Part shown: piece after piece, positions 14,833-51,722 of the stretch
Numbering within the stretch: position 1 is the first letter of the stretch
How the letters are laid out: each line of letters begins with the position of its first letter
Assembly: GCA_021806925.1 (NCBI GenBank)
Contig: JAKAPS010000001.1
Span: 71,040-135,039 of the forward strand
DNA: 64,000 bases
Origin: a bacterium
GTDB lineage: Bacteria > Patescibacteriota > Dojkabacteria > JAKAPS01
Reading direction: 5' to 3'
Position numbers and translations under genes: made by a program
Notes under the pieces: generated by a model
What the model was told of the DNA's origin: nothing
Databases searched by the model: none
The model's input: only the letters and a program-made list of their open reading frames with translations

Positions 14833-15954
14833 CTAGTATGTTGCAACAGCGTTGTACTGTAATGTACCAGTATAAGTGTCAGCTGGTTGGTACACATCAG
14901 TTTCAACCTGATATGTAATATTTACAGTAGTTCCATTATCTGGAGCAGTTGATTCATCCACTGTGTTATAAGTACTGTCTACTGGTGCCCATTTGCCTGT
15001 TGGCGAAGACCAACCAGAAACCCTAGTATCGCTTGTATTAGCACCAATGAATGATGCTGTTGTAGAACCGGGGGTTGTAAGGTTAGATCCTGTAGGTGCC
15101 GTCCACGCAACTGGTGTAGCCCAAGAAGCACTATTAGCTTCAAATGGTTGAAGAACCTTTCCGCTAGTTCCTGTCATGCCTGTTGTCATAGCCATACTGA
15201 CTGTATAACCGCTTAATGCGTTTGTAGTAACAGTAACAGATTGACCAGCCAAGGCTGATTGGTTAGCAGTGATATTTCCGAATGGAAGTGTGTTGTAAGT
15301 TGAAGTAGCAGTTAAAGTACCACCTGATGTGACAGTTCCTGATGCTAAACCAGCAAGAACCATTGTCAAAGCAGGGTCTACAGTAACAGATGCTGTGGTT
15401 GGAGAAACAAGTTCGTATGACGCAGAACCAGAGTCGACTAGTGTTGTTGTTCCTGTATAGGTAGCAACCCTAGCAAAACATGTACCAGTATTTGCATTAC
15501 TGTTTGCTTCTGTACAACCTGATGCACCACCAATCTGTGGGTTAGTAATTGTTTGGAATGCTACTGTAACAGCAGTACTTCCACCCACGACTTGAGGTGT
15601 AGCGTTTGTAATACTCAATTCACCACCTGATGTACTAGCTAATGACCAACCTGTACCTATACCAGTTGTTGTACTCAACGTTGCACTGGTTAGAACTAAT
15701 CCTGTTGGAACTGTAATACCTCCTGATGGAGTAGTAGCGTATTGAAAGTCAATTACATTAAGAGTAGCACTACTTCCTGTTGTAAATGAAAATGTATAGT
15801 TGGATTGTGTTGACGGCTCAGAATTTGACAAAGTAACACTCTTTGATGTTAATGTTCCTGAAGTCGCAAATGCAGGTGCAAGAGGCAGTAAAGCACCAGC
15901 TATCACTAAAGCAACCATTGAAAAAAATTTGGATAATTTCTTAATTATTGTCAT
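14833..15954 (-). CDS. Secreted S/T/G-rich surface protein; paralog of 1902..2963
   Basis: 373 aa. Signal peptide (FFSMVALVIAGALLPLAPAFATSG). Low-complexity T/S/G-rich body. The C-terminal module is homologous to 1902..2963 (SWATPVAWTAPTGS...GANTSDTRVSGWSS). Confidence 0.7.
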   Translation of the reverse strand: MTIIKKLSKFFSMVALVIAGALLPLAPAFATSGTLTSKSVTLSNSEPSTQSNYTFSFTTGSSATLNVIDFQYATTPSGGITVPTGLVLTSATLSTTTGIGTGWSLASTSGGELSITNATPQVVGGSTAVTVAFQTITNPQIGGASGCTEANSNANTGTCFARVATYTGTTTLVDSGSASYELVSPTTASVTVDPALTMVLAGLASGTVTSGGTLTATSTYNTLPFGNITANQSALAGQSVTVTTNALSGYTVSMAMTTGMTGTSGKVLQPFEANSASWATPVAWTAPTGSNLTTPGSTTASFIGANTSDTRVSGWSSPTGKWAPVDSTYNTVDESTAPDNGTTVNITYQVETDVYQPADTYTGTLQYNAVATY

Positions 15955-20808: not shown

Positions 20809-21753
20809 CTATTCCTGAACAACACTGCCATTACTTGATAATGCAAATTTATTATAGCTTGCACTACCTTTCATCGTAAGGGACTCTATCTGTCCGTTAA
20901 TTGATACTGCAAGGTTATTTGGATTTGCCGATTCAATGATAAGAAAATCATTTGATGAAAAATCATTTATACTTCCACTGCTAAGTACTCCGTTCTGAAG
21001 TATTTTTCCATCTCCTATTACTTCAACCCATGTTGCAGATGATTTATCAACAATACGCAAATTTAAATTTCCATTAGTACTTGTTGTGATATTATCTAGG
21101 GTTTCATGTAGAGTTACTTCAGTGCTTCTATTGAAATAGTTTACTGTCTTAATGTTTATTGTATTACTTACATTTGTTAAATCAAACGTGTAGTTAAAGT
21201 TTCCATTAGTATCTATATTATATATTTTTGTATTATTAATATATAAATTGTCACCAGGTGTAATTGTACCTGATATAATCAATTCTGGAGAATTAAATAC
21301 CTGGTTGTTTTGAGGAGATGAGATTGAAAGTTTAGGATTTTGTATGTATCCTTTTAATTCTGTAAAGAGAAATATAAAGAAACCAATAAAAACAAATAGA
21401 GCGAACAGCCACCAAAGAATTGAAGGGTTAAAAAATATTACAAAATTTTTTAGTCCTTCACTTCTTTTTACACTTTTCTTCTTCTTTTCACCTACTTGAG
21501 TAGCATTATGGAAATTATCATCAAAATCCCTTCTGTATATTGCAAGAATGTTTTCTGGATTTAATTTTAAGAATTTTGCATAATTCTTTATAAATCCTTT
21601 TATTATAAGCGGAGATGAGAAGGCTGAGTAATCATTATCTTCTATAGCTTCTATATACTTACTCCTTATTTTCAGGTTGTCTGAAATATAATTTATGTCA
21701 TATTTCAATCCAATTCTTTTAGCTTTTAATATTTCACCTGCTGTTCTCATCAC
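20809..21753 (-). CDS. rodZ: RodZ-like cytoskeleton/morphogenesis protein (N-terminal XRE-type HTH, single TM, C-terminal extracytoplasmic domain)
   Basis: N-terminus GEILKAKRIGLKYDINYISDNLKIRSKYIEAIEDNDYSAF is the characteristic RodZ HTH region. A TM helix follows (WWLFALFVFIGFFIFLF). It lies immediately downstream of ftsK with a 20-bp overlap. Confidence 0.65.
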   Translation of the reverse strand: MMRTAGEILKAKRIGLKYDINYISDNLKIRSKYIEAIEDNDYSAFSSPLIIKGFIKNYAKFLKLNPENILAIYRRDFDDNFHNATQVGEKKKKSVKRSEGLKNFVIFFNPSILWWLFALFVFIGFFIFLFTELKGYIQNPKLSISSPQNNQVFNSPELIISGTITPGDNLYINNTKIYNIDTNGNFNYTFDLTNVSNTINIKTVNYFNRSTEVTLHETLDNITTSTNGNLNLRIVDKSSATWVEVIGDGKILQNGVLSSGSINDFSSNDFLIIESANPNNLAVSINGQIESLTMKGSASYNKFALSSNGSVVQE

Positions 21754-24034
21754 TATTATTATTCCCGTTATTCTTTAGTTCACTCAAAAAACTCTCCGGA
21801 TCAGATACAAGTACTTTTCTCATTTTATTTCTATCAACTTCACCAAGCACATTCTTTTCCTGCATTTCATTTATTAAGCGAGCTGCTCTGTTATACCCTA
21901 TCTTTAGGACAGTTTGCAACATTGACGCTGAAGCCTTTCCCTGCTGGCAAACTAATCTCACTGCTTCTGGAAAATATTCATCTTCCCATCCAGACATTCC
22001 TCCTCCATTATTAACTCCAGTCTTGCCCTCTCCTTCACCAGTCCCAAATTCAGTTATATCTGGAACATATTCAACATCATCATTACTTTCTTTAAGGAAG
22101 AGTGTTATTCTCTCAATCTCTTTATCATCAACAAATGGAGATTGAACTCTAATAACCCTAGCCATATCAGGTAATTTTAATAGCATATCTCCTTTCCCAA
22201 GTAATGTTTCTGCACCTGTTTGATCGAGAATTACTCTTGATTCAATTTGACTCGTAACTCCCATACCAATTCTTGCTGGAATGTTTGCCTTTATAAGTCC
22301 GGTAATTACATCTACAGAAGGTCTTTGAGTTGCAAGTAATAGATGTATTCCTACAGCTCTAGACATTTGAGCAAGCCTGACAATCAGACTTTCTACCTCT
22401 TTACCTTTAGTAAACATAAGATCTGCCATTTCATCTATTATCAAACCTATATATGGTAGTTTCAGATTTGTATCTATAGAATTATAGCTTTCAATATTTC
22501 TTGCACCTGATTGCTTTAGTGTTGTATACCTGTTTACCATTTCCTGAACCAACCACTTTATAGCACTAACTACTTGATCCATATCTGTTATTACAGGTGT
22601 TAATAGATGACCAATTCCGTTATATTGAGATAATTCAACTTGCTTTGGATCTACAAGTATTAGCCTTAATTCATTAGGAGTGTGTCTCATCAACATTGAT
22701 ACTAGAAATGCATTTATTGCTGAGCTTTTTCCTGAACCTGTTGCTCCTGCAATCAATAAGTGTGGCATTTTTCTTAGATCCTTCACAATTACTCCACCTG
22801 ATATATCTCTTCCAATTGCAAGATTTATACCAGCCTTTGCAATATCAGGCGTCTCTATTATTTCCCTTATTTTGACAAGTTTTGGATTTGTGTTAGGGAT
22901 CTCAATTCCAATTAATGAGGTCCCTGGAATAGGAACCTCTATACGTATTTCACCAGGTGCGGCTAATGCAAGAGCTATATCCTTACTTAAATTTGATATC
23001 TTTTGTGCCTTTGTCCCCATTGTTATTTGAAGAGCATATTGAGTTACAGTAGGACCAACCTTTACATCTGATACCTTTGACAATATACCAAAACTTTCAA
23101 GAGTTCTTTCAATTGTTTCGCTATTTTTTCTAACGTTCTCAGTATTCTGATTAAATATAACAGGTTCATCAAGCAATGTTATTGGCGGTAACTTCCAATC
23201 ATCAAATTCTGAATCACTTAAAAGTGACTGCTTTGGGGTTAGTTTTTCAAATGAAATATTTGTTTGCACATTATCCTTAACAGGTAATTTATTTGTTCCA
23301 GAAAGATCACCTACAAATTCTAGCTGAGGAGTTGTTGCTTCCTGTCCATTTTGGAAAATATCACCTATGCTAAAGTTCTTGGGATTATCTTCTGTACTAT
23401 CATTTTTATTTCCTTTTCCATTCTTTAAATTATCCTTATTAATCTTCTCATTAGGTTTTCTGTCAAATATATTCATTGTTAAATTTGAGATATATTTACA
23501 TGCTTTAGATATAATTAAAAATAAACTACTTAATACTTTCCAAATAAAGTTAATAAAAAGCTTAATATATTTAAAGACTTTTAGAATAGGGATTGAAAAA
23601 CCAATAATGCCAAAGAAAATTGTTATACAGAAAAGTAAAAATGAGTCTAAATATCTGTTCTGTATGTATTTTATTGATTCATTACCAATATATTCACCTA
23701 TTTTTCCGGAATTACCATATAAATTACCGTTCACATTATTTAAAGCTAAAAAGCTTAATAAAAATAGAGAAAGAAAAATTATAGAGCTTCCTTTATTAAA
23801 TCTGAATGAATTACCAAACAATCTTAGAGCAGTAATAAATAGAATCATCGATGCAAATAGTAACCCTATACCAAACAACTCTTTTATCTTAAAAAAATAT
23901 GTATTCTGAATAAAGACTGATGCAAGCAAGATTAAACTTAATATAATTGTTATTGAACCAAAAACAGTTGTAGTCTCCTCACTCTTAATTGTTAATTGTT
24001 TTTTCTTTTTCTTTGCCATTTTCTTTTTACACAC
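21734..24034 (-). CDS. ftsK: DNA translocase FtsK
   Basis: N-terminal TM helices. Motor domain with Walker A LIAGATGSGKSSAIN and Walker B LIIDEMADL, plus ATQRPSVDVITG. C-terminal gamma winged-helix domain (ASASMLQTVLKIGYNRAARLINEMQ). Confidence 0.9.
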   Translation of the reverse strand: MCKKKMAKKKKKQLTIKSEETTTVFGSITIILSLILLASVFIQNTYFFKIKELFGIGLLFASMILFITALRLFGNSFRFNKGSSIIFLSLFLLSFLALNNVNGNLYGNSGKIGEYIGNESIKYIQNRYLDSFLLFCITIFFGIIGFSIPILKVFKYIKLFINFIWKVLSSLFLIISKACKYISNLTMNIFDRKPNEKINKDNLKNGKGNKNDSTEDNPKNFSIGDIFQNGQEATTPQLEFVGDLSGTNKLPVKDNVQTNISFEKLTPKQSLLSDSEFDDWKLPPITLLDEPVIFNQNTENVRKNSETIERTLESFGILSKVSDVKVGPTVTQYALQITMGTKAQKISNLSKDIALALAAPGEIRIEVPIPGTSLIGIEIPNTNPKLVKIREIIETPDIAKAGINLAIGRDISGGVIVKDLRKMPHLLIAGATGSGKSSAINAFLVSMLMRHTPNELRLILVDPKQVELSQYNGIGHLLTPVITDMDQVVSAIKWLVQEMVNRYTTLKQSGARNIESYNSIDTNLKLPYIGLIIDEMADLMFTKGKEVESLIVRLAQMSRAVGIHLLLATQRPSVDVITGLIKANIPARIGMGVTSQIESRVILDQTGAETLLGKGDMLLKLPDMARVIRVQSPFVDDKEIERITLFLKESNDDVEYVPDITEFGTGEGEGKTGVNNGGGMSGWEDEYFPEAVRLVCQQGKASASMLQTVLKIGYNRAARLINEMQEKNVLGEVDRNKMRKVLVSDPESFLSELKNNGNNNSDENSR

Positions 24035-24081: not shown

Positions 24082-25275
24082 TCACTCAATAATAACATTT
24101 ATCTGACTTCTTCTAAATGGAAGGAATCTAAATATGCTAAACCATACTGGTGATACCTTTATATATACGTATTCAACGCCAGGAATTGATTTAATATAAC
24201 TTGATGCACTTGAAACAGAGTGCTTTACTACATTATTTTTTAAATTATTAACATCAATATTTCTTACCTTTTTTCCAGTTAGAAAAATATCATAAGCAAT
24301 AGAGTTATCTTTAGAATTATATGTTATGTTTTTTATATTATACCCAATAGAGGATATCGTAAATCCATTACCACTTGATTTTTGTAGAAATGAAGTTGCA
24401 TATGCTGTTAAATCACTCGACTTTATATATTTTTCTGTACTTGTTGTTTGAAGTGATAAATTTAATACGCTTGAGCAATCTCCTGGATTATTATCAAAGG
24501 TTTTTTGTGAATCTGTATTAACAATACTACTTGGAAACGATATATCACTTGACTGCAATCCGGCTGATAAATCTGTTTGTGCCTTTTGATACAATTGGTT
24601 CTCAAGAGATTTCAAAAGGTTGTTCTGATCTGTTTGGGTTACACTCTGACATGTTTTTGCATTTCCGCCAGTAAATGAAGATTGATTAGTTATTGTATAT
24701 GATGGAGTTGTTCCATTTTGCCCTGTTGATGAAGCACTTAAAGGTGAAGAACCTACTGCATTAAATTGACTGTTTGCAGGTATGTTACCATTCGCCCCTA
24801 TAGATTCAGCCTGAAATGTTGCATTTGTAACAACCGCACTCGATACAGACGCTGGGATTGTAACGCTTGTCGTTATTGTAAAATTTAACTGGTTTGCACT
24901 ATCAGAAAATACTGATCCAGCTGGAATAGTTATTGAATTTGGGTAGTTTAATGTAGTTATTGATACTTGCCCAGTAGCAGGACTTCCTACAGTACTTGTA
25001 CCTGTTGTATTAAGTGATGAGGATGAATTCTCATTTACTGTATATGTATATACTGGAACAGGCATATTTGTATATTGACCATTTTGAAATGTGGCAACAG
25101 AATTATCTTCAAATGAAAGACTCTTAGAATCAGTTCTAACTTCAATTTGAGCTCTTGGGAAAATATATATTGATACAAAAAGCATTAAAATTAGCACAAT
25201 AATACCTATCCCATACCAAAACTTCAATACTAATTTATTATGTTTATTCCTTTTTAAAGGTGATATTGTATTCAT
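24082..25275 (-). CDS. Hypothetical membrane-anchored extracytoplasmic S/T-rich protein
   Basis: 397 aa with an N-terminal TM anchor (FWYGIGIIVLILMLFVSIYIF) and a T/S/N-rich body. Last gene of the DUF4012 operon before ftsK. Confidence 0.5.
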   Translation of the reverse strand: MNTISPLKRNKHNKLVLKFWYGIGIIVLILMLFVSIYIFPRAQIEVRTDSKSLSFEDNSVATFQNGQYTNMPVPVYTYTVNENSSSSLNTTGTSTVGSPATGQVSITTLNYPNSITIPAGSVFSDSANQLNFTITTSVTIPASVSSAVVTNATFQAESIGANGNIPANSQFNAVGSSPLSASSTGQNGTTPSYTITNQSSFTGGNAKTCQSVTQTDQNNLLKSLENQLYQKAQTDLSAGLQSSDISFPSSIVNTDSQKTFDNNPGDCSSVLNLSLQTTSTEKYIKSSDLTAYATSFLQKSSGNGFTISSIGYNIKNITYNSKDNSIAYDIFLTGKKVRNIDVNNLKNNVVKHSVSSASSYIKSIPGVEYVYIKVSPVWFSIFRFLPFRRSQINVIIE

Positions 25276-25331
25276 AAATGAACTATTAACTATATTACTT
25301 AGAAATATACTCCCAAGGATTTTACTAAAAC

Positions 25332-26162
25332 TTAGATTTTTTTTTTACTGTATACCTCTAGGTCTTCCCCAATTATACCACTTCCACTTCCTGAGAGACT
25401 AGAAATTGTATCTATTTTACGTTCTAGTTTTTTTTTATTATTAGTATCATTATTAGATTTGTATAACGTAAGTGCATCTAAACCAAGAAATAGCTCAAAG
25501 GATCCATAATTAACACTCTTGAGCCTGGTATCTGTATATTCAGAATTTTTCTCTATACTTTCATTTAGATCCTCTAATGAATTTTTTTCAACCTCGCTTT
25601 CAATATTTAATATTTCATTTTCTGAATCTACTTCATTTGGAATGTATTCTTCAGTGTGCTTTCTATCTTCTATTACATTCTCTACAGCTTTTTCAACTTC
25701 TACATGTTCTTCTTCACGTGATTCCCTTTCATCTATTCTATTTGCATCTTCATATATATTATGACTTTCTTTATTATCATTATTTTTATTTATATTATTG
25801 CTGTTTACTGTTCCTTCACGGATATTATCAACGTAAGAATACATTTCTTTTTCATCTACCTCTTCTGTATTATCTGATAAACTATCCCAAAGTGAATTAT
25901 CAATTTCTCCAACCTTATTTTTAACCAAGAAGCCAGCATTGGTTGCAAGAATCTTCCCGAACCTATCCATACATGCAATAATGACCAATTTTTCATGCCT
26001 TGCAAGAGATGTTTTTAACAACCTAATTGAAGAAAGGGAAGATATAACCTGTGCTTTTTCAGGAATTACTAGTATTACTCTTTCTGTTTTAGCATTTAAT
26101 ATCTTTTCAACAATAAATGGAATCTCATCATCTAAATCTAAAAATATTTTTGTATTAGGCAT
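25332..26162 (-). CDS. Hypothetical protein with conserved N-terminal domain and highly acidic low-complexity C-terminus
   Basis: 276 aa. N-terminal roughly 100 aa is globular-looking. The C-terminal half is E/D/N-rich. 8-bp overlap with the upstream actin-like ATPase gene. Confidence 0.45.
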   Translation of the reverse strand: MPNTKIFLDLDDEIPFIVEKILNAKTERVILVIPEKAQVISSLSSIRLLKTSLARHEKLVIIACMDRFGKILATNAGFLVKNKVGEIDNSLWDSLSDNTEEVDEKEMYSYVDNIREGTVNSNNINKNNDNKESHNIYEDANRIDERESREEEHVEVEKAVENVIEDRKHTEEYIPNEVDSENEILNIESEVEKNSLEDLNESIEKNSEYTDTRLKSVNYGSFELFLGLDALTLYKSNNDTNNKKKLERKIDTISSLSGSGSGIIGEDLEVYSKKKI

Positions 26163-27381
26163 CTTTACCTCCTTTTAATAGTTCAAATTTATCTATATCA
26201 AGTGACATTCTTGCAAGTGATAATGGTGTAATCATATCAATACCATTGCAAAGGTTCATATTATCAACAATACCATCAATATTTTCCTGGTTTAAGAAAA
26301 CAACTTTTGGACTTCTGTTGAATGGTAAATAATCTATAAACGGATATTGTATTAATATTTCTCTTATCTCTGGTAGTTGAGAACCGCCACCACACAAAAG
26401 AATATTGGCAGGAAATAACTCTACATCTTTAAACTCTTCAAGTGCTAATCTAATACCATGAGCCCATATAGAAATATCCTTTAAAATGCTTTTTTTAACT
26501 ATGTTAGAGTATCCTCTATCTAATACACCTTTTGAGTAATCAATTTTCATTTGCTCAGCTCTTTCATAATTCAAATTCATATCCATTGCAATTCTTTTTG
26601 TAAAAACTCTACCCCCAAAAGAGAACATATGAGTATCAATCAAACACCCACCTTTAACAACAGCTACATCTGTAGTACCTCCGCCGACATCAATAATTAT
26701 AGCTTCAAAGTCTTCATTCCTACCGCCAACGACTGATCTAGCTACTGTAAATGGTTGTGCTGCAATTAATAAAGGAGATAGGCCAACTTGTTTACATACG
26801 CTCTCAATTGCACCAACTTGAACAGACGGTGCATATGTAGAATATATATTGAGTTTCATCGATTTACCAGAGAAATCAGATGGATTATCAACACGAAATC
26901 CATCAATGAATGATTCAACTAAAGAACTGGATATTAATCTTATCTGAGGTTTCTCAAGAGCTGTATATTCCTGAAATGTTTTTATAGCTTCTTCTTCTGA
27001 TGGCTTTTTTATTTTTTCATAAACTTTTTTCAACTCATCAATAGAAATCTTCTCATCAGCTTTTTCTCTGTCATAATTTGCATTAACCAACACACCTTTC
27101 ACCATTTCACCAGCAAGACCAGTAACACAGTGAATAGGAATATCACCGTTATATTTGTTTGTAGCTATACTCAAAGATGACCTTACTGACTCAACTACGC
27201 TTCTGATATTTGTTATTTGTCCGCCCTTAACGCCATTTATTCTTTGTTTGACTTTTCCTACACCAATTACCTCAACTATACTATCAGTTTTTCTATACAA
27301 TATGGATTTTACAAACTCTGTACCAATATCCAGAGCAAAATATACATTCCTTTCCCTTTTTTTAGATTTAAAAAAAAACAT
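26155..27381 (-). CDS. Actin-like ATPase, FtsA-like (cell division protein FtsA candidate)
   Basis: 408 aa. Phosphate-1 motif YFALDIGTEFVK and phosphate-2/adenosine motif IIIDVGGGTTDVAVV are characteristic of the FtsA/PilM/MreB actin fold. Length and the GGSQLPEI motif favour FtsA. Confidence 0.65.
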   Translation of the reverse strand: MFFFKSKKRERNVYFALDIGTEFVKSILYRKTDSIVEVIGVGKVKQRINGVKGGQITNIRSVVESVRSSLSIATNKYNGDIPIHCVTGLAGEMVKGVLVNANYDREKADEKISIDELKKVYEKIKKPSEEEAIKTFQEYTALEKPQIRLISSSLVESFIDGFRVDNPSDFSGKSMKLNIYSTYAPSVQVGAIESVCKQVGLSPLLIAAQPFTVARSVVGGRNEDFEAIIIDVGGGTTDVAVVKGGCLIDTHMFSFGGRVFTKRIAMDMNLNYERAEQMKIDYSKGVLDRGYSNIVKKSILKDISIWAHGIRLALEEFKDVELFPANILLCGGGSQLPEIREILIQYPFIDYLPFNRSPKVVFLNQENIDGIVDNMNLCNGIDMITPLSLARMSLDIDKFELLKGGKDA

Positions 27382-27471
27382 AAAAAATAAACATTAGTTT
27401 AACAATAAGTATTATACATGTAAAATAAAAAAAATGGTAAACTCATCAAAAGATATAAATATTTCATACGT

Positions 27472-28527
27472 TTATACTGTATCTATAAATTCTTTTAAAT
27501 TATCATTGTTAATAATTATTGGTAAATTTGCTCCTTCAAGTATCTTTCTATCTATTTTTCTTCCTATCCCTAAAAACTCTCTTTCAAGATCTCTTATACC
27601 TGCCTCATAACCAAGAGGAGAAACAATATTTGGATAAACATCATCTTCAATTTTAAAATCATTTTCAGAAATACCAGCATAGTCAATCATTTTCTTAAGA
27701 AGATATTCTTTACATATAATTATCTTTTCTTCATCAGAATATCCTGTTAATTTTATTACATCTACCCTATCAACAAGTGCAGAAGGCAACCCACCTATGT
27801 TATTAGCAGTAAGAATAAAAAATATATTTGACAGGTCAATTGGATAATCTATAAATCTATCTGTGAAAGAATAATTTTGCTCGGGATCAAGTATTTCTAT
27901 TAATGCTGAAAAGACACTGGATTTTGATTCTAAATCATTTCCAGTTTTATCAACTTCATCTAATAGTATAACTGGATTAAGAGAATGTGACTTTATTAAT
28001 GATTTTACAATTTTTCCAGGTTCTGCATCGGAATTTGCCTTACTTCTTCCAATTAACTCAAGTGAATTTGCCATCCCACCCATTGGTATCCTTATAAATT
28101 TAAGAGACAAACTTTCTGCTATTGATTTTGATATAGAAGTTTTACCGATTCCAGGCAACCCCTGAAGCAATATAACTGAGGGTGTAGCTCTAAGAGACCT
28201 GTTTTTCTTAATTTGCAGAAGAGCAATATAGTCCAGGATCTTGTTTTTAATTTCTGACATGCCATAATGGTTTTTTGAAAGTATAGATTTAACACTTTCA
28301 AAATCTGTATTCTCTTCGCTATAGCTTGAAAAAGGAAGTGATACACAAGTATATATATATTTGTATGTAGTTTCGTATTCCTTACTAAAACCGCCATATT
28401 TTATTATTCTATCTAAACTCTTTACCCTATCCAATAAGCGCTGTCTTAAATCATCTGGAACTTTTGATTCATTTATTATTTTCCTTAAGTATTCAATTTC
28501 ATTTAAAGTATCATTATCATTATTCAT
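27472..28527 (-). CDS. Lon-like AAA+ ATPase module without protease domain
   Basis: 351 aa. HYGMSEIKNKILDYIALLQIKK, then Walker A ILLQGLPGIGKTSISKSIAESL, then RIPMGGMANSLELIGRSKANSDAEPGKIVKSL and Walker B PVILLDEVDKTG, then ...YEAGIRDLEREF. Together these align closely to the Lon ATPase plus alpha-helical domain. The ORF ends before any S16 protease (Ser-Lys dyad) region. There is no Lon N-domain. Confidence 0.75.
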   Translation of the reverse strand: MNNDNDTLNEIEYLRKIINESKVPDDLRQRLLDRVKSLDRIIKYGGFSKEYETTYKYIYTCVSLPFSSYSEENTDFESVKSILSKNHYGMSEIKNKILDYIALLQIKKNRSLRATPSVILLQGLPGIGKTSISKSIAESLSLKFIRIPMGGMANSLELIGRSKANSDAEPGKIVKSLIKSHSLNPVILLDEVDKTGNDLESKSSVFSALIEILDPEQNYSFTDRFIDYPIDLSNIFFILTANNIGGLPSALVDRVDVIKLTGYSDEEKIIICKEYLLKKMIDYAGISENDFKIEDDVYPNIVSPLGYEAGIRDLEREFLGIGRKIDRKILEGANLPIIINNDNLKEFIDTV

Positions 28528-28532
28528 AAATT

Positions 28533-30395
28533 TTAAAAATTTAGTTCAGTATCTTGATATATATTTTGGCTTTGAGTCTTTCCATTAAAATCTACTGTTG
28601 TGTTTATATTAGGAATTCCTCCCTGCTTATATATATATAGCTTGTAATTACTTGTGTTTACTGTACTTGGAAGATAGTAACTTATTGTTAATGTTAAATG
28701 AGTTGCAGGTGCAGAAACATAATATTTAACAGGTACTGTAATATGTGTATCAAATACAGTATAACCTAGCTCGTTATACACTCTTTCAGTTTGACCAGCA
28801 AAATATTTATCATCCCCTGAGAATGATACAAGTTTAGATCCTAGTGGAACATAAAGCCTTATCCATTTTTTAGAAGAAATATTAAGCCACCCATCATATA
28901 CTTGTGGATTTGTAAAAGTTATAGCTACTGTTTCAAGCCAACCCTTTGATGTATGCGTAATATTGTCGTTGATACTTCTTTGTATATAGAAATCGGATTT
29001 GTTTCCAAGTACATTTGTATCAATAAATCCTAAGAAATCTGTTCCATTCGTAATGGTAGGAAAAACTCCTCCTAGGTTATATTCTACAAGCAGATTTTCA
29101 ACACTTGGATTATCTGCATACATTGAAACATTTCTCTCCTGAACACCCTTTAATCCAAGTTGAATTAATGAAATTAATTGATTACCCCTAGCTGCAAATA
29201 CTTTTGATTTTATCTCTTCAATTAGATAATTTATAAATTTTTTTCTGTTTGTAGAATTATTTATATTATCAACTTTCTCAGAATAATATTCTATTAAATA
29301 TGCTGCGTTGTTTGCATTTACCGTCACGTTATATTGTGGAACATAGACAGGTCCAGTGGCATTCAATAGAGATGTTACAAATTGAGTATTTAAATATACT
29401 ACACCATTAATTGGTGGAACCTCCCCACTTGGAATCGATCTGTACATCTCCTCTGCAACCTTTGCACTAGTTGGTACATCCGGACTGTAATTTGAATCTC
29501 TTAAGTACCAGTTAGAAACTTCTACATATTGCTTCAATTGCACTGGTGCATTTAAGTATGGCTGCTCTAATTTGTCAAGGCTATATATATCATTTGTAGA
29601 TATTTTACCTAACGCACCATTTGTAAATGTAAGATAACCATATGAAGTTATAAAGCCGCCAGTCGGTCTTAATTCTTTATCATTTTCAAGAAGTAACAAA
29701 TAGTTTTGTGTATTTCCAGACGCTCCCATTGCAGTTTGTATAACAGGAACAATTGAATTTAATTTAGGAATAAGTGTCACAAAATTACCATATATATTTT
29801 TATATGTATTAAAATCCGTTTTTATATTTATCCCTTTATATGTAATATTTGGCAGATATGCCTGATTAACATCATTTAATTCATTCTCAGCATTTGACAA
29901 ACTAGTCTGATTGTTTGTTATAGCTGTAGTAATTAGCGGCAATCCAGCAACAATAGCTTGAACCTTTGCAGGACCTAGAACAGGATTTGGTCCATATCCA
30001 AGAGCACTTGATAGAGGTTCTGCAGATGCAGCAATTTTTCCTGTAGCATTATCTATATTTATTGCCGCTGATACAATATCAGTAGCATTAAAATAGTATC
30101 CGTTTACATACGGGATGAAACTTAGAACTTTAAAATATTTAATATCTTCACTGGTTGTATTCAGATCTACTCCAAGCATATTTACTCCCTGAATAATTCC
30201 TGTGAGGGATTTTGCAGACTGTGCAGTTTTAATTTTCTCGACATCAACTTTCAATAATTTTATATTTTTCTCTAATCTCATTGCTCCATAAGCAATATAC
30301 GCACTGAAAGAAAGAAGAATAAATAAAAGAACTATAAGTGTTATTAAAAGCTTCCTATATTTAAACAAAAACAATCTGAATCTAAATCTATTCAT
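28533..30395 (-). CDS. DUF4012 domain membrane-anchored protein
   Basis: 620 aa. N-terminal TM anchor. Motif QNYLLLLENDKELRPTGGFITSYGYLTFTNG matches the DUF4012 core. Confidence 0.7.
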   Translation of the reverse strand: MNRFRFRLFLFKYRKLLITLIVLLFILLSFSAYIAYGAMRLEKNIKLLKVDVEKIKTAQSAKSLTGIIQGVNMLGVDLNTTSEDIKYFKVLSFIPYVNGYYFNATDIVSAAINIDNATGKIAASAEPLSSALGYGPNPVLGPAKVQAIVAGLPLITTAITNNQTSLSNAENELNDVNQAYLPNITYKGINIKTDFNTYKNIYGNFVTLIPKLNSIVPVIQTAMGASGNTQNYLLLLENDKELRPTGGFITSYGYLTFTNGALGKISTNDIYSLDKLEQPYLNAPVQLKQYVEVSNWYLRDSNYSPDVPTSAKVAEEMYRSIPSGEVPPINGVVYLNTQFVTSLLNATGPVYVPQYNVTVNANNAAYLIEYYSEKVDNINNSTNRKKFINYLIEEIKSKVFAARGNQLISLIQLGLKGVQERNVSMYADNPSVENLLVEYNLGGVFPTITNGTDFLGFIDTNVLGNKSDFYIQRSINDNITHTSKGWLETVAITFTNPQVYDGWLNISSKKWIRLYVPLGSKLVSFSGDDKYFAGQTERVYNELGYTVFDTHITVPVKYYVSAPATHLTLTISYYLPSTVNTSNYKLYIYKQGGIPNINTTVDFNGKTQSQNIYQDTELNF

Positions 30396-30525: not shown

Positions 30526-30942
30526 TTATATACTCCTTAAGTATTGCAAGAAATTAGCGGGTTTAGTAATAATAATATCAAATTCATTTTTAATTTTCTC
30601 TATTTTATAGTCTTTCATATTATACGTTACCAAGAAATCAGAATTTATTTCTTTCGCTGAACATACAATATGTGCATCATCTATATCAAATACGTAACTC
30701 ATAAAATTTAATTTTATATATTCTAATGAATACTTATTCTCATATACTACTACATTTTTAATAATTTTAGAGAAGTCGTTTTCTGACAAGCCTTTTCGCT
30801 TAATGACTATCCTCAATTCATTAACTGAATGGTTTGAAATATATAAGTCAAAATTAAATCTTTTATTTAACAAATAAAAGGCAGCTCCTGAGGATGAAAT
30901 CAGTGATGAAATAATAACATCTGAATCAATAAAAACTTTCAT
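30526..30942 (-). CDS. PIN-domain ribonuclease toxin (VapC-like)
   Basis: 138 aa with acidic PIN residues in FIDSDVII, DIDDAHIV and FLVTYNMKDY. Confidence 0.7.
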   Translation of the reverse strand: MKVFIDSDVIISSLISSSGAAFYLLNKRFNFDLYISNHSVNELRIVIKRKGLSENDFSKIIKNVVVYENKYSLEYIKLNFMSYVFDIDDAHIVCSAKEINSDFLVTYNMKDYKIEKIKNEFDIIITKPANFLQYLRSI

Positions 30943-30944
30943 TT

Positions 30945-31208
30945 TTACATTTCTAATCTAACTTCTTTCAGCATCTTTTCCACAATAGCAATATTTCTTA
31001 AATCCTCTTTTTCCGCCATTAATAGATCATCATCTAATCCATTAAATAAAAACGATACAGAGCTTTTTGGAACTCTATATACTTTTCCATATTTCTTAGC
31101 TATTATTTCACCGCTCTTTATAAGTTCATATACAGTTTTCCTACTTAACTGAAGTGCTCTCGCTATTTGTTCTGGCGTATATGCCTTATCAATATCCATA
31201 TTATACAA
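30945..31208 (-). CDS. HTH (excisionase/MerR-like) DNA-binding antitoxin partner of the PIN toxin
   Basis: 87 aa. Motif LQLSRKTVYELIKSGEIIAKKYGKVYRV is an excisionase-type helix-turn-helix. Lies 2 bp upstream of the PIN gene on the same strand. Confidence 0.6.
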   Translation of the reverse strand: MYNMDIDKAYTPEQIARALQLSRKTVYELIKSGEIIAKKYGKVYRVPKSSVSFLFNGLDDDLLMAEKEDLRNIAIVEKMLKEVRLEM

Positions 31209-37795: not shown

Positions 37796-38377
37796 ATGAA
37801 ATCAACTGATATATACTTAAAATTAAAAAATACTGGGAAGAATATATTTAAGCTGCAGGATATAAAAACATTGACTGGAGTAGAAAAATACGAGTATCTA
37901 AAAATATATATAAATAGAATGATAAAAAAAGGCCTTATTAAAACAATAAAAAAAGGTCTTTATTACCTTGCTGATTCACCACCATCTGATTTTGAAATAG
38001 CAAACAATCTATATATTCCTTCATACATTTCATTGGAAACAGCATTAGTCTATTATGGTATTATTAACCAAGTTCCATATACGATCACATCAGTAACTCT
38101 AAAAAAGGCAAATATGTACAAATTTAATGCGAAAGAATATAGCTATAGCCATCTTAGCCAATCTCTATTTTATCCTGATTTACAAAAGAACAATATATTA
38201 ATAGCTTCAAGGGAAAAGACTATTATTGATACTATCTATCTAGCATCTTTTAGAGGATATGATATAAACTTTGACGAATGGGATTTATCAGACATTGATA
38301 TGGTAAAATTAAAGACTATAGCTAGTACTATAGAAATAAAGGCATTTAGTAATTTATTTTATTCGTTATTCAAATGA
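37796..38377 (+). CDS. abiEi: AbiEi-like antitoxin/transcriptional regulator (type IV TA)
   Basis: 193 aa. 4-bp ATGA overlap with the downstream nucleotidyltransferase toxin. N-terminal wHTH-like region and size fit AbiEi. Assignment mainly by context. Confidence 0.6.
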   Translation: MKSTDIYLKLKNTGKNIFKLQDIKTLTGVEKYEYLKIYINRMIKKGLIKTIKKGLYYLADSPPSDFEIANNLYIPSYISLETALVYYGIINQVPYTITSVTLKKANMYKFNAKEYSYSHLSQSLFYPDLQKNNILIASREKTIIDTIYLASFRGYDINFDEWDLSDIDMVKLKTIASTIEIKAFSNLFYSLFK

Positions 38378-39138
38378 TAAACTCAACTGATCTAAGTAAA
38401 TATGCAAATGAATGGAAAATCGATACTTACTCTATTATTAGGGAATATATACAATTGGTGATTTTGGGAGCTATATATCAGATAAACAACAGTGAACAAA
38501 TATACTTTAAAGGAGGGACTGCATTAAGATTAATATATAAATCGATTAGATTTAGTGAAGACTTGGATTTTAACTCAAAACTTCCAAGAGAAGAAATCAT
38601 TACTATTCTAAAGAAGTCAATTGATTTAATAAAGAATATTTTACCGGGAATATATTTAGATAATATTGAAAACAAATATGACAATATACATACACGTGTT
38701 ATGTATAAATCTACTGGGTTACAACAGCCACTAAACATTGCTGTTGATGTAAATACCAAAGATGGATCATTAGATGAATACATTTCACTACTTTCATCTC
38801 CAATGCCATTACCTTATTATTCTTTTATTAAAACACTTACTATAGATGAGATATTGGCAGAAAAAATAAGTGCGTTAATGAACAGATCAAAAGGTAGAGA
38901 TGTTTTTGATGTCTGGTTCTTACTGAATAGACAAGTAAAAATAGATATGAATCTTCTTGAAAAAAAGATGGCACTTTATAATAAAAGAATAACAATAGAA
39001 GATATAATTAGTAAAGTACAAGAGTATGACGAAAAAAAATTAAAAAATGATCTAAATAAATATTTACCGGAAAATCAGCGTAATATTGTTCCCTTACTTA
39101 AGGAATTATTAACTAATATGTTATTACCATTGAAATAA
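38374..39138 (+). CDS. abiEii: AbiEii-like nucleotidyltransferase toxin (DUF1814 family)
   Basis: 254 aa. Motif FKGGTALRLIY...RFSEDLDFNS is the GG(T/S)-x-L...S-x-D-x-D-F nucleotidyltransferase signature of AbiEii. Confidence 0.8.
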   Translation: MINSTDLSKYANEWKIDTYSIIREYIQLVILGAIYQINNSEQIYFKGGTALRLIYKSIRFSEDLDFNSKLPREEIITILKKSIDLIKNILPGIYLDNIENKYDNIHTRVMYKSTGLQQPLNIAVDVNTKDGSLDEYISLLSSPMPLPYYSFIKTLTIDEILAEKISALMNRSKGRDVFDVWFLLNRQVKIDMNLLEKKMALYNKRITIEDIISKVQEYDEKKLKNDLNKYLPENQRNIVPLLKELLTNMLLPLK

Positions 39139-43526: not shown

Positions 43527-44261
43527 ATGGAACGTCTATTCTATTACAAAAGTGTAAAACATTTTAGAGAGTATAAAGGAAAAGGTTTGCTTGATAGATT
43601 AAACACAAAAAAGAAAATTGGAATTCTTTTGCTATTCATATCGATTTGTATTATTGGATATATAGTGTCTAGTATTTTTTTGCTTACTAATGGAAATACA
43701 GATATACTTCCGGTCCCTAATTCTGTCATATATCAATATATTAATTCTATAAATAAGAATAATGATAATAATTTAGGAATAGAAAAGTACCTTAGCACAA
43801 ATAAATCTTACAAATCAAATATATCTTCATATACATTAAATTTTCCATCTCTCAATGTATCAGGAATAAAGGTTACAACAAATGTTCCCTTAATTCCAAG
43901 TGTATATGAAAATAAACTTGAATCATCAACTGTTCAATATCAAGGTACAGCTCAGATTGGAACAACAGGTAATACTTTTGTTTATGGTCACTCTTCTCCA
44001 GTATGGTTTCATTCTCTATTTCCATCATCGTATGAAGGTATATTTACAAGTCTTTTCTCATTAAAAGTCGGTGACCCTATAACAGCTAACGTAAACAATC
44101 AAACTTTTTCATATATAATAGAATCAATATACACTATTAAACAAACAGATTTCAGTCAGATAAATTCAATTCCGTCTGAAAGTACATTAACATTGATGAC
44201 TTGCTCTCCTCCTGGTGTAGATAATATGAGACTTATTGTGCGAGCAGTAAAAGTAGATTAG
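43527..44261 (+). CDS. Sortase-family transpeptidase
   Basis: 244 aa. N-terminal TM anchor. Catalytic triad context FVYGHSSP (His), TLTLMTCSPPG (TLxTC Cys) and MRLIVRAV (Arg), matching the sortase fold. Confidence 0.75.
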   Translation: MERLFYYKSVKHFREYKGKGLLDRLNTKKKIGILLLFISICIIGYIVSSIFLLTNGNTDILPVPNSVIYQYINSINKNNDNNLGIEKYLSTNKSYKSNISSYTLNFPSLNVSGIKVTTNVPLIPSVYENKLESSTVQYQGTAQIGTTGNTFVYGHSSPVWFHSLFPSSYEGIFTSLFSLKVGDPITANVNNQTFSYIIESIYTIKQTDFSQINSIPSESTLTLMTCSPPGVDNMRLIVRAVKVD

Positions 44262-46520: not shown

Positions 46521-48635
46521 CTAAAATATTGACCCAATAAAACTAAAAACTCCTTTGAAGAAAGAACCAATTGATGAAGTAAATAAATTAGAACTTGAAT
46601 TTGATTGTGTCGTTTGTTTTGAAGTTACACTTACATTGCTATTGTTTATTTTATTTAACTGTGTACTTTCCTGTTGAACTTGAGTAGTATGAATATTGTT
46701 TGCTGGCTTTGTATTTTTAGGCATTATATAAAAATTAATGGCAGGTATACTAGATGTAGGAAATGTAATATCATATTCAGACTTTGTATTAGGAACATAC
46801 GTCATTCCATTAGGTAGAACCATAATAAAAGATTGATCTCCAGGGTCAATACCATTTATGGTAAAAGATCCATCACTCCCAGTTACGGCACTTCTAGCAT
46901 AATTTACAACAGATACTCCACTTACACCTACCCACGATGATCCAGATTGCTCAAAAACATGCCCTGAAGCATTGAATACTCTAGTTGGAATAAGTTGAAA
47001 ATCTGGTATTGCAGGACTTGGGTTAGAATCTCCGACGGTAACAGTATATGATGTGTGTGCACCTGGTGCAAATTTATATCCAGGTGGAACCTTGATTGTT
47101 AAAGTGTATGTACCTGCAGGGATTTTATGAAACACATATCCTCCACTATCTACAACAGTTGTTTGTCCGTCACTTACTACAACGCCACCTAAGTCGCCAA
47201 GAATATTCTTACTAGTATTTATATTAGTAACATCAACTACTCTTCCTGAGATAGTATAAGAATTACTACATGTAAGCAATGGAAGAACACTTGGTTGCAG
47301 TGGTTTCTGATTGTAATTAAGCATATCGCCTAAATCATTTGCCTGTGCATCAAATGAGGTTAATGAAGGCAGACCGAATGTAGATTCAATAAATTTTAAA
47401 ACTGAAGGCTGACTATAAAATGTATTATCAACTATACCTGACCTAGAATAAGGAGAAATCATAAGTGTTGGAACCCTAGGGCCATATTCAATCTGGCTGT
47501 TTGGCCCTTTTGGAGGGTATACATGATCATAAAAACCTCCAAAGTCATCCCAGGTTAAAACAATAGCTGAGCTATTCCACAAGCTACTATTTTTCATGAC
47601 CGCATTAATTTGGTTAACTGTATAATTTTCTCCCTGACATTCACCGTATGGCGGATGTTCACTAACATTCATTGGTTGTACTACCCAACTAACTGCTGGT
47701 AAATTTCCAGACTGTACGTCACTAATGAATTGATTATACCCAACAACATGCTGTTGCCAGTCTACACCATTTCTTATTTGATTAATTGCATCATATGTCG
47801 ACCATTGATAACCTGCCATATCTTGTGGTGGAGCATAATATTTCCATGATATTTTCTGCTCATCAAGTAAATCTGCCACAGTTTTATAATTAAAACAAGG
47901 AAAGATATGATTTTTTATTCCATTTTGCTGTATTTGCAACACCCATGTTTGTGGAGTCGAATCGCACCCCCAACGGAATCTTCCTCCTCCTGTATTTACT
48001 GGATTATCAGAAACATTGTCATCCTCTCCTCCAATTGTAAACAAGTGTGCAGGAAAACTTGGTCCAAGTATTGTAGAGAAGTAGTTATCAGCAAGAGTAA
48101 ATTCTTTTGCATATTGCCAATAATCAGGAATATCAGATTGATAATATTGACTATCTGCTACATCTACACCGTTTTGCACTGCTCCAGCAAGCAAGGAAAA
48201 TTTATCTTCCTTTCCACCATCTTCTGCTAAAACAGCCCCATCATGAGAATGATCAATATCATTAATAAGGGAATCTGGCGTATGATTAAGTTTAACTACA
48301 TTTCCCTGTGCATTTTTATATGTTGTTGCACCATTTCCTCCAGGGAACGTTCCGAATAAATTATCATATGAATGATTTTCTTTAATGATATATATTATGT
48401 GTTTTATTGGAGAAGTATTACACCATCCTCCAACTGGTTGAGGAGGATAACATCGTGGGACTCCAGTTAAGCATGAAGGCGGTGGAGTACAAGGAGAAGT
48501 AGAAGTAGATATACCTAGAATTCTGTGTATATTGGTTGTCCTAACAAATATAGTAAGAAGAAAAAGAAAAAAAATACTAATAATAACATGCGGTCTTTTA
48601 AAGAAATTTTTGGATATAAATTTTAAACGCCACAT
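46521..48635 (-). CDS. Secreted phosphoesterase-family protein (phospholipase C / acid phosphatase family) with C-terminal CarboxypepD_reg-like beta-sandwich domains
   Basis: 704 aa. Signal/TM at the N-terminus. IIYIIKENHSYDNLFGTFPG matches the phosphoesterase (PF04185-type) N-terminal signature. C-terminal YTISGRVVD...GYVFHKIPAGTYTLT repeats look like carboxypeptidase-regulatory-like domains. Confidence 0.7.
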   Translation of the reverse strand: MWRLKFISKNFFKRPHVIISIFFLFLLTIFVRTTNIHRILGISTSTSPCTPPPSCLTGVPRCYPPQPVGGWCNTSPIKHIIYIIKENHSYDNLFGTFPGGNGATTYKNAQGNVVKLNHTPDSLINDIDHSHDGAVLAEDGGKEDKFSLLAGAVQNGVDVADSQYYQSDIPDYWQYAKEFTLADNYFSTILGPSFPAHLFTIGGEDDNVSDNPVNTGGGRFRWGCDSTPQTWVLQIQQNGIKNHIFPCFNYKTVADLLDEQKISWKYYAPPQDMAGYQWSTYDAINQIRNGVDWQQHVVGYNQFISDVQSGNLPAVSWVVQPMNVSEHPPYGECQGENYTVNQINAVMKNSSLWNSSAIVLTWDDFGGFYDHVYPPKGPNSQIEYGPRVPTLMISPYSRSGIVDNTFYSQPSVLKFIESTFGLPSLTSFDAQANDLGDMLNYNQKPLQPSVLPLLTCSNSYTISGRVVDVTNINTSKNILGDLGGVVVSDGQTTVVDSGGYVFHKIPAGTYTLTIKVPPGYKFAPGAHTSYTVTVGDSNPSPAIPDFQLIPTRVFNASGHVFEQSGSSWVGVSGVSVVNYARSAVTGSDGSFTINGIDPGDQSFIMVLPNGMTYVPNTKSEYDITFPTSSIPAINFYIMPKNTKPANNIHTTQVQQESTQLNKINNSNVSVTSKQTTQSNSSSNLFTSSIGSFFKGVFSFIGSIF

Positions 48636-50494: not shown

Positions 50495-50495
50495 A

Positions 50496-51722
50496 ATGGC
50501 AGATTTTAAATATACATTTACAAAAGAGAATTCATATACTATTGAATCAAATGTTGTTAAAGCGACATCGAAAGAAGAAGCAATTGGACTAATTCCACCA
50601 GGGCTAAATGTAGTAGACATAACTGAGATAAAGACAAAGAAAAACGTTTCTTTATTTTCATCTAAAAATATTAAATTAGTCGACAAGGTTCTGTTCTTTG
50701 ACCATATGTCTCAGATGATTAAAGCGGGGCTTAGTATAAATGAAACACTTGAAGCTTTAATTGATGATAACGAGAATGAATATTTTAAATCAGTTATTAA
50801 AGACATAAAGTATGAGATTGAAGCTGGAGGGACATTTTCAAAAGCAATGAGTAAATACCCAAAAGTATTCTCAACACTTGAAGTGAAAATGATTGAAGTT
50901 GGAGAAATTACTGGAACACTTGAAGAGACTGCATATCAAATATCTATTCAGTCAAAAAAAGATTTTGAGCTAAGGAGTAAAATAAAAGGTGCATTGATAT
51001 ATCCAGAAATATTGTCAAGTATCATGGTACTTGCTGGTGTTGGATTAATTGTATTTGTTGTTCCTCAATTAAAAACATTTTTCATGCAGGCAAATATGCA
51101 GCTACCAATAACAACTCAAATATTAATTGATATAAGCACAATAATAACTGGATATTGGTATTTATTTGTTTTGGCAATCGCCTTAATTATATTTTTCTTT
51201 CCAAGACTTAAAAAAAACAAAGAGTTTGCAAATGGTCTTGACTGGGTCATACTAAGGACACCTATAATAGGAGAAATAACAAAAAAACTATCCCTTGCCA
51301 TATTTACAAGAACATTAGGTTCATTGCTAAAGTCAGGAGTTTCAGTAAATAAATCTATTGAGCTTACAGCCACAAGTATACCTAATTCTATTTATAGGTC
51401 TGCAGTTCTTGGTTTTACTCATGATATAGAAGAAGGAGTTCCATTGTATAAACTAATGGAAAAAAGAACTGATATATTCACGAATCTTTCAATAAGGATG
51501 GCTTTTGTAGGTGATAAAACTGGAAATCTTCCAGATATGCTTATAAATATCGCTGATTTTTATCAAAACCAAGTGAATGATACATTGTCAAATATATCTA
51601 CAATTATTGAACCTGTAATGCTGTTCATTATGGGAGGAGCCACACTTTTTATTGCATTAAGTGTTATTTTACCAATATATCAATTAACAAGTGGAATATC
51701 TGGAATGCAACCTGCTAAATAG
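50496..51722 (+). CDS. pilC: Type IV pilus inner-membrane platform protein PilC (GspF family)
   Basis: 408 aa. Two T2SSF repeats, three TM segments. Starts 2 bp after pilB. Confidence 0.85.
   Translation: MADFKYTFTKENSYTIESNVVKATSKEEAIGLIPPGLNVVDITEIKTKKNVSLFSSKNIKLVDKVLFFDHMSQMIKAGLSINETLEALIDDNENEYFKSVIKDIKYEIEAGGTFSKAMSKYPKVFSTLEVKMIEVGEITGTLEETAYQISIQSKKDFELRSKIKGALIYPEILSSIMVLAGVGLIVFVVPQLKTFFMQANMQLPITTQILIDISTIITGYWYLFVLAIALIIFFFPRLKKNKEFANGLDWVILRTPIIGEITKKLSLAIFTRTLGSLLKSGVSVNKSIELTATSIPNSIYRSAVLGFTHDIEEGVPLYKLMEKRTDIFTNLSIRMAFVGDKTGNLPDMLINIADFYQNQVNDTLSNISTIIEPVMLFIMGGATLFIALSVILPIYQLTSGISGMQPAK

Follow-up and report, generated by a model that had tools for sequence, protein, structure and literature searches.

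Several described bacterial systems couple an actin-fold protein to the cell envelope. FtsA, the tether of the Z-ring, carries a C-terminal amphipathic membrane-targeting helix, PilM of type IV pilus machines is paired with the bitopic protein PilN, and MreB is linked to the envelope through RodZ. A large share of bacterial diversity belongs to the Patescibacteria, whose division and cell shaping are little understood. Here, we have examined a 64-kb stretch of the Dojkabacteria contig JAKAPS010000001.1 (64,000 nt, hereafter the window), which is AT-rich (G+C ~30%) and has a gene content typical of Patescibacteria (candidate phyla radiation, CPR), its proteins finding their best homologues in Dojkabacteria/WS6, Berkelbacteria and unnamed metagenome-assembled genomes (MAGs). 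A previous sequence-only reading had singled out a row of seven genes, running from a DUF4012 membrane protein through a Lon-type ATPase, an FtsA-like ATPase and two unknown proteins to ftsK and rodZ, as a conserved operon forming an uncharacterised envelope or division module. Our analysis points to a smaller unit, made of the FtsA-like gene and the gene that follows it, which we call the partner gene and which is called as two open reading frames (ORFs) in this genome. We give roughly even odds (a probability of about 0.5) to the reading that the functional unit is this two-gene module, in which an FtsA/PilM-class ATPase and a bitopic tether act in envelope growth, shape or division.

Loci carrying an orthologue of the FtsA-like gene were collected by running its profile over one genome per GTDB species and over metagenome contigs, and by seven look-ups of contigs that hold FtsA-like homologues. 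As a result, 55 loci were obtained, whose neighbourhoods were examined within 10 kb. The partner lies directly downstream on the same strand, as a single gene encoding 500-720 aa, in about 45 of the 55 loci, with a median gap of ~9 nt and several 4-nt overlaps. Four further loci have it within 3 kb, four others reach a contig edge before it could appear, and two lack it. The loci belong to Patescibacteria (Saccharibacteria, Peribacteria, Moranbacteria, Dojkabacteria and Berkelbacteria) and, beyond them, to Chloroflexota (Limnocylindrales and Chloroflexia), to Dormibacterota and to a cultured member of the Halanaerobiales, Natroniella sp. ANB-PHB2. The two genes are kept adjacent across phyla, and their coupling is tight and ancient. 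A mirror-tree comparison of FtsA-like and partner pairwise distances gave r = 0.86. The partial correlation given the distances of alanyl-tRNA synthetase (AlaRS) was 0.60, a value that 0 of 2,000 permutations reached, and that between the FtsA-like protein and AlaRS given the partner was 0.25. The two proteins co-evolve beyond their shared phylogeny.

Outside the lineage of the window the flanks of the pair recur, with AlaRS upstream in 26 loci, RuvX downstream in 25 and MnmA further upstream in 17. This alaS/ruvX context is an old housekeeping neighbourhood; Firmicutes and Actinobacteria, too, typically have alaS, ruvX and mltG as neighbours. The order alaS-pair-ruvX, with mnmA further upstream, was seen in Saccharibacteria, Chloroflexota, Dormibacterota and Natroniella (L004-L036; for example L019, 7983-13042, and the Natroniella locus L030), and in one Berkelbacteria locus (L002) ruvX and then mltG lie downstream of the pair.

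The ATPase encoded by the first gene matches PF14450 in Pfam (53 bits). On the FtsA equivalog model TIGR01174 it scores 98.9 bits, under the cutoff of 175.85, and on PRK09472 it scores 52 against a cutoff of 409. In a sequence-level comparison, the family profile aligns with solved FtsA structures (7q6f, 7q6d) at E 6e-24 over residues 10-286, the 1C-type insert included, and with PilM at 1e-14. The phosphate-1, phosphate-2 and adenosine motifs (DxGT, DxGGGTTD and CGGGS) are invariant in 25 homologues. The predicted fold of the protein is that of actin with an insert of the 1C type, and its motifs for ATP binding are intact. A hidden Markov model (HMM) of the family gives full-length members at least 370 bits and canonical FtsA at most 119 bits. 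The protein terminates just past the core (…ARMSLDIDKFELLKGGKDA), most homologues stop at the same point, and no C-terminal amphipathic membrane-targeting helix was found in it, the maximum hydrophobic moment being 0.36 at low hydrophobicity. Neither within 10 kb of any FtsA-like locus nor anywhere in the window is there an ftsZ gene, which is present near 43 of the 45 canonical FtsA loci of a first scan and also near L102. That this gene is distinct from canonical FtsA is supported by the cutoff, by the ftsZ context and by the C-terminal helix; it may be a paralogue. Source annotations call the homologues 'cell division protein FtsA' and some of them PilM. Two metagenome loci, L097 (1271-2494) and L098, hold an FtsA-like orthologue and no partner. 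The L097 protein is extended at its C-terminus by an amphipathic-looking stretch (...ENKLRAKIAKLLQN), and the next gene encodes an unrelated secreted protein of 605 aa; such a C-terminus in a partner-less locus is an anecdote consistent with a tethering role of the partner.

The two unknowns of the sequence-only reading, an acidic ORF and an anchored S/T-rich ORF, turned out to be one frameshifted gene, which reduces the row to six genes. The acidic ORF aligns to residues 1-263 of an intact 680-aa homologue, P0122 (34% identity, E 5e-38), and the S/T-rich ORF aligns to the remainder of P0122 (32% identity over 99% of its length). Read on the minus strand, the acidic ORF closes with ...AGT AAA AAA AAA ATC TAA, and the frame of the downstream ORF is open back into this run of ten adenines (A10). 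With one A added, the ORF grows to 693 aa and aligns to both P0122 and P0132 in a single high-scoring segment pair (1-693 versus 1-678, E 8e-95). We treat the two ORFs as one gene because of this end-to-end match to intact 680-aa homologues after a 1-nt insertion. The A10 run is the sole homopolymer of at least 10 nt in the window, it sits exactly at the frame change of the partner gene, and it is identical in an independent Logan assembly. Programmed -1 frameshifting was also considered and rejected, as no RNA structure was detected downstream of A10 (z 0.67).

Judged from the sequence alone, the frame may truly be broken at A10, it may be restored there by transcriptional or ribosomal slippage, or the assembly may be wrong. 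Runs of at least nine A are known transcriptional and ribosomal slippage sites able to restore the frame, and slippage-dependent expression has been described for poly(A) tracts in AT-rich reduced genomes. Expression of the partner could be slippage-dependent at A10 in this organism. The full-length protein would then be obtainable only via slippage at the A-run, and without it the gene would yield a soluble 276-aa fragment, possibly together with a separately initiated membrane fragment. An AAGGAGG Shine-Dalgarno sequence precedes the partner start (26162), which overlaps the stop of the FtsA-like gene by 8 nt, and the partner is predicted to be translationally coupled to that gene. A clear Shine-Dalgarno (AAGGAGG) was found in only 2 of the 45 genes checked, this one and the gene at 14833-15954; the genome seems otherwise to initiate translation without Shine-Dalgarno pairing, so that a missing one before the second ORF is uninformative. 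Partner genes broken into at least two ORFs were also seen in the assemblies of L001 (11260-13232), L017, L033 and L036, and some of these look like long-read homopolymer errors. In L001, which is WS6 OLB20-like, the break lies within the transmembrane (TM) region and both frames are open. A metagenome scan for same-genus relatives, aimed at the A10/A11 question and at DUF4012 adjacency, returned none closer than 42% identity.

The acidic ORF has no Pfam or NCBIfam match. AlphaFold2 (AF2) models residues 1-97 with a predicted local distance difference test (pLDDT) value >90, as four beta-alpha repeats forming a four-stranded alpha/beta domain with a conserved acidic D-x-D-D-E cluster after beta1 and an acidic residue after beta3. 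Structure prediction had been suggested as a check of this ORF and of DUF4012. The N-terminal domain of the ORF is confidently modelled and has no significant PDB fold match (best E 0.065, receiver/STAS-like); no solved structural relative was found for the DUF4012 protein. Residues 100-210 (pLDDT ~50) are predicted to form a disordered acidic linker, after which come a basic juxtamembrane segment and one TM helix; with the positive charges on the N side of this helix, the C-terminus of the partner is predicted to face outward. In the AF2 model of the 3′ part (pLDDT 88.5), the TM helix (12-37) is followed by a beta-rich region (41-211), a long helix (214-239) and an alpha/beta region (245-396).

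The S/T-rich ORF matches PF04865 (Baseplate_J) at 26.0 bits, against a gathering threshold of 21.1, over residues 97-172 and profile positions 20-87 of 255, and partner homologues reach 22-36 bits on the same model. In Foldseek the only matching part is the ectodomain barrel of ~110-130 residues, which resembles the GlxA barrel and the baseplate wedge proteins of phages and tailocins (E 4e-6 to 1e-3, TM ~0.2). The conserved residues of the ectodomain are mostly Gly, Pro and Asp, which suggests a structural rather than a catalytic role. Because of its low-complexity composition, the partner drew no more than 6 and 15 matches in word-indexed protein searches, and an exhaustive profile search was needed to reveal the family. 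It found 8,233 partner representatives at E ≤1e-30, the top 150 matches all being single proteins of 536-721 aa. No phage genes lie near the pair in the window. A prophage remnant was rejected as an identity for the pair, since the partner has no PHROG match and the ATPase only a weak generic actin-fold match, and so was a defence system, neither core protein having a PADLOC match and the Lon-like protein having only generic AAA+ matches.

The coordinates of the pair and of its neighbours are listed in Table 1. All seven co-directional minus-strand ORFs are present where the sequence-only reading had placed them. Its junctions are confirmed too, with 5 nt between the genes at 28527/28533, 8 nt shared at 26155-26162 and 20 nt shared by ftsK and rodZ at 21734-21753, and Pfam and NCBIfam bear out its domain calls (DUF4012, protease-less Lon AAA+, FtsA-like, FtsK and RodZ). 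Its idea of a conserved operon survived only for the FtsA-like/partner pair, which is widely kept; the whole row is not kept in synteny across the 55 related loci.

Table 1. Positions in the window of the two-gene module and of the neighbouring genes
Feature	Coordinates	Strand	Basis
FtsA-like actin-fold ATPase, 408 aa, core gene 1	26155..27381	-	PF14450, TIGR01174
Partner gene, 5′ part, 276 aa as called	25332..26162	-	alignment to P0122
A10 homopolymer, frameshift site in the partner gene	25337..25346	-	sequence
Partner gene, 3′ part, 397 aa as called	24082..25275	-	PF04865, alignment to P0122
ftsK, DNA translocase	21734..24034	-	FtsK_alpha, FtsK_SpoIIIE, FtsK_gamma
rodZ	20809..21753	-	HTH_25 + RodZ_C
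Lon-type AAA+ ATPase without LON-N or protease domains	27472..28527	-	TIGR00763
DUF4012 membrane protein	28533..30395	-	PF13196

Downstream of the pair, FtsK has its alpha, motor and gamma domains, and RodZ scores 63 bits on HTH_25 and 25.8 bits on RodZ_C. The gene order in relatives, a check proposed with the sequence-only reading, supports a block of FtsA-like gene, partner, ftsK and rodZ in the two closest relatives (L084 and a contig of JGI 3300050821; 53-56% identity), with gaps of at most 2 nt; L084 has the same 20-nt ftsK/rodZ overlap as this genome, and the JGI contig has one of 17 nt. In L085 (45% identity) rodZ lies one gene upstream of the FtsA-like gene and ftsK 6.4 kb away. The same check fails for the rest of the row: in the remaining loci, including all from other phyla, where alaS and ruvX are the neighbours, ftsK and rodZ are not within 10 kb, DUF4012 is present in 0 of the 55 loci and the association of the Lon-like gene is loose. 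The DUF4012 protein itself belongs to PF13196 (94 bits against a gathering threshold of 28), a family that is enriched in CPR and Gram-positive bacteria and has no assigned function (PMC6744442).

The Lon-like protein covers positions 248-567 of 795 of TIGR00763 (302 bits against a cutoff of 608), has neither a LON-N nor an S16 protease domain, stops where the protease domain would begin, and matches the structure of Bacillus subtilis LonA (3m6a) at E 3e-67. Its pore loop 1 reads RSKANSDAEPG against RRTYVGAMPG in LonA and has no aromatic residue. The altered loop is kept in four relatives of 359-433 aa that are also without protease, which suggests that this ATPase may no longer thread substrates. 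In L001, L084, L086, L088 and the JGI contig its gene is found upstream of the FtsA-like gene at a distance of 0.7-5.5 kb, an association that is confined to one class-level lineage and was seen in no other phylum. In these relatives a uracil-DNA glycosylase (UDG) gene and others, some on the opposite strand, stand between it and the pair. Here, the Lon-like and FtsA-like genes are separated by a 90-nt gap with a 10/12 sigma-70-like match. Because the segment of the relatives from polynucleotide phosphorylase (PNPase) to the Lon-like gene is without the PIN pair, DUF2079 and DUF4012, the PNPase to Lon-like stretch holding these genes looks like a lineage-specific insertion. The larger operon is mostly a lineage-specific juxtaposition.

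Elsewhere in the window, two toxin-antitoxin pairs were noted, HTH_17/PIN directly upstream of DUF4012 (30526-31208) and AbiEi/AbiEii (37796-39138). The window also holds its own pilus genes, a PilM-PilN fusion (62469-63974), which has a TTG start and reaches almost to the window end, and a pilB-pilC-pilin operon (48833-53162) whose products are PilB, PilC and three N-methyl pilins and after which comes an ORF of 458 aa without annotation (53101-54477). A sortase (43527-44261), a 704-aa phosphoesterase with surface-protein-like beta-sandwich repeats (46521-48635) and a 999-aa ORF without family match (55038-58037) may be cell-surface equipment typical of episymbiotic CPR.

The mechanism that we propose for the two-gene module is as follows. 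The FtsA-like ATPase would reach the membrane by binding the cytoplasmic part of the partner, as PilM does with PilN and MreB with RodZ. Its ATP-dependent self-association inside the cell would then organise the wall-facing ectodomain of the partner outside, and the module would thus act in envelope growth, shape or division. Its place beside ftsK-rodZ would be due to a move of the pair within this lineage, and DUF4012 and the Lon-like protein are neighbours and not components. Of the envelope or division module that the sequence-only reading had imagined, this retains a conserved envelope-spanning module centred on the FtsA-like gene and drops the other two proteins. A broader and more tentative proposal, which we regard as possible and no better than that, is that the pair is an ancient third 'actin-like ATPase + bitopic tether' alongside the FtsA-divisome and PilM-PilN, inherited vertically, between alaS and ruvX, in the part of the Terrabacteria that comprises Patescibacteria, Chloroflexota and Dormibacterota and in some Firmicutes. 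It would be a trans-membrane cytoskeletal scaffold that positions the wall or division machinery in monoderm-like, often ultra-small cells, with poly(A) slippage possible in AT-rich reduced genomes.

Several points weigh against the two-gene module as we describe it. The envelope or division role is the weakest step of the explanation and rests on neighbours: it comes from weak guilt by association, the ftsK-rodZ adjacency occurring in only 3-4 relatives, and elsewhere the link to the envelope or division consists of ruvX nearby and of mltG in one locus. The conserved Gly, Pro and Asp of the ectodomain form no catalytic site to suggest an activity. Because adjacent genes have a common history, mirror-tree correlations can come out too high. 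Since the partner is frameshifted here, the module may be inactive in this genome. Finally, the sole gene annotated ftsA in TM7x lies far from ftsZ, so that the FtsA-like family could be the working FtsA in some Patescibacteria.

This last point leads to an alternative in which the FtsA-like protein is the lineage's working FtsA, a Z-ring tether that has moved away from ftsZ and whose lost amphipathic helix is replaced by the bitopic partner. In its favour, the closest solved relatives are FtsA, ahead of PilM, the sources name the family 'cell division protein FtsA', the protein has no membrane helix of its own, it stands beside ftsK-rodZ here and in the nearest relatives, and the annotated ftsA (TM7x_02800) is separated from ftsZ (TM7x_00785) in TM7x (bioRxiv 10.1101/2022.03.25.485537). 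However, the TM7x 'ftsA' and ftsZ were oppositely regulated (bioRxiv 10.1101/2022.03.25.485537), and a survey found CPR ftsZ generally flanked by FtsA and other dcw genes (PMC9871819). Both types also exist within one phylum, Chloroflexota: its Limnocylindrales and Chloroflexia carry the FtsA-like/partner pair, and a Dehalococcoidales MAG (L067) has ftsA and ftsZ in the canonical arrangement. With the score far under the FtsA equivalog cutoff and ftsZ near no FtsA-like locus, we consider this alternative unlikely. Far less credible still is a role in type IV pili or competence, in which the ATPase would be the PilM-type part of the machine and the partner would stand in for PilN/PilO. An actin-like ATPase followed by a bitopic protein does mimic pilM-pilN, some sources use the name PilM, and PF11104 (PilM_2) matches at 35 bits, but only over residues 222-344, and TIGR01175 gives 34.5 bits against a cutoff of 133. 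No PilN (PF05137) or PilO domain occurs in either partner half or in eight of the partner homologues that were checked, no pilus genes flank the pair in any related locus, and the pilus operon of the window lies 21 kb away. The window's own PilM-PilN fusion does not match the FtsA-like family HMM, and its presence together with that operon led us to reject the PilM identity.

Doubts of another kind concern the state and the extent of the module. It may be decaying here, the partner being a pseudogene and the 'two unknowns' functionless, or else A10 may be an assembly error and the gene intact. We find this rather doubtful, though less so than the working-FtsA alternative. The 1-nt frameshift does sit at the longest homopolymer of the window, no stimulatory RNA structure follows it, and partner ORFs are broken in the four further assemblies mentioned above; yet apart from the break the 693 codons hold no stop, the two halves are still 32-34% identical to intact homologues, the strong Shine-Dalgarno persists and so does the 8-nt overlap with the FtsA-like gene, the A10 run is repeated in the independent assembly, and an A-run of this length can restore the frame by slippage. 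As for extent, the original model, in which all six or seven genes from DUF4012 to RodZ are one conserved operon for a single envelope or division machine, now appears very improbable. Co-direction, small gaps or overlaps and the lack of any terminator-like minus-strand site between the genes agree with it, as do the tight FtsA-like/partner/ftsK/rodZ block of L084 and the JGI contig and the upstream Lon-like gene of five Dojkabacteria-lineage loci. The absence of DUF4012 from every related locus, the genes that part the Lon-like gene from the pair in relatives, the alaS/ruvX flanks that take the place of FtsK and RodZ in other phyla, and the 90-nt gap with its promoter-like match before the FtsA-like gene all speak against it, and as a seven-gene conserved operon it is rejected by synteny. 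We retain the two-gene module of ATPase and tether as the preferred reading.

No description of the FtsA-like/partner pair was found in the literature searched, and neither the pairing nor its breadth nor its place between alaS and ruvX seems to have been described so far. Database labels for the ATPase family are "FtsA", "PilM" or "MreB-like", and those for the partner are "baseplate J" or "hypothetical". Due to this mislabelling, genome surveys may count the FtsA-like family as divisome FtsA, and recognising a separate widespread module, with more than 8,000 partner representative clusters at E ≤1e-30, would allow inventories to be corrected. The pair is also a shared trait linking Patescibacteria with Chloroflexota and Dormibacterota, and a concrete target for tests in carriers that are in culture, among them Natroniella sp. 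ANB-PHB2, Chloroflexota and the genetically tractable Saccharibacteria.

When compared with known systems, the neighbouring Lon-like protein retains an AAA+ module and lid ~45% similar to those of B. subtilis LonA, with Walker A and B intact, and differs in having lost the N-terminal LON domain, the S16 protease and the pore-loop Tyr, losses common to five members of the lineage. The ectodomain barrel of the partner resembles baseplate wedge proteins (Baseplate_J, gp6/gp47/Mup47; PF04865) and the GlxA barrel (PF21110), both in sequence, at 26-36 bits in several homologues, and in fold, with a best local root mean square deviation of 2.7-3.7 Å. Only this one domain matches, however, and the partner is a membrane-anchored, cellular protein without PHROG match and without tail or baseplate genes as neighbours.

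With FtsA, the ATPase shares the actin/HSP70-type fold, the FtsA-style insert that replaces subdomain 1B and the two phosphate motifs and adenosine motif, which are invariant in its family. In contrast, it is ~25% identical to canonical FtsA and under the TIGR01174 cutoff, its gene is never beside ftsZ or dcw genes and has a near-obligate downstream partner gene, and the protein has no C-terminal amphipathic helix. MreB-RodZ offers the same arrangement of an actin-fold protein linked to the envelope via a bitopic protein with a folded cytoplasmic domain, and rodZ is even a neighbour in this lineage. The two systems are not homologous, the partner having an alpha/beta domain where RodZ has a helix-turn-helix (HTH) and the ATPase being of the FtsA and not the MreB class. 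PilM-PilN(-PilO) is the working analogy for the mechanism that we propose. In both cases the gene of a cytoplasmic FtsA-like ATPase lies directly upstream of that of a bitopic protein whose cytoplasmic part would tether the ATPase. The pair described here differs in lying outside a pilus locus, in a genome that has a separate PilM-PilN fusion, and in a partner that combines a folded N-terminal alpha/beta domain, a long acidic linker and an ectodomain of ~350 aa.

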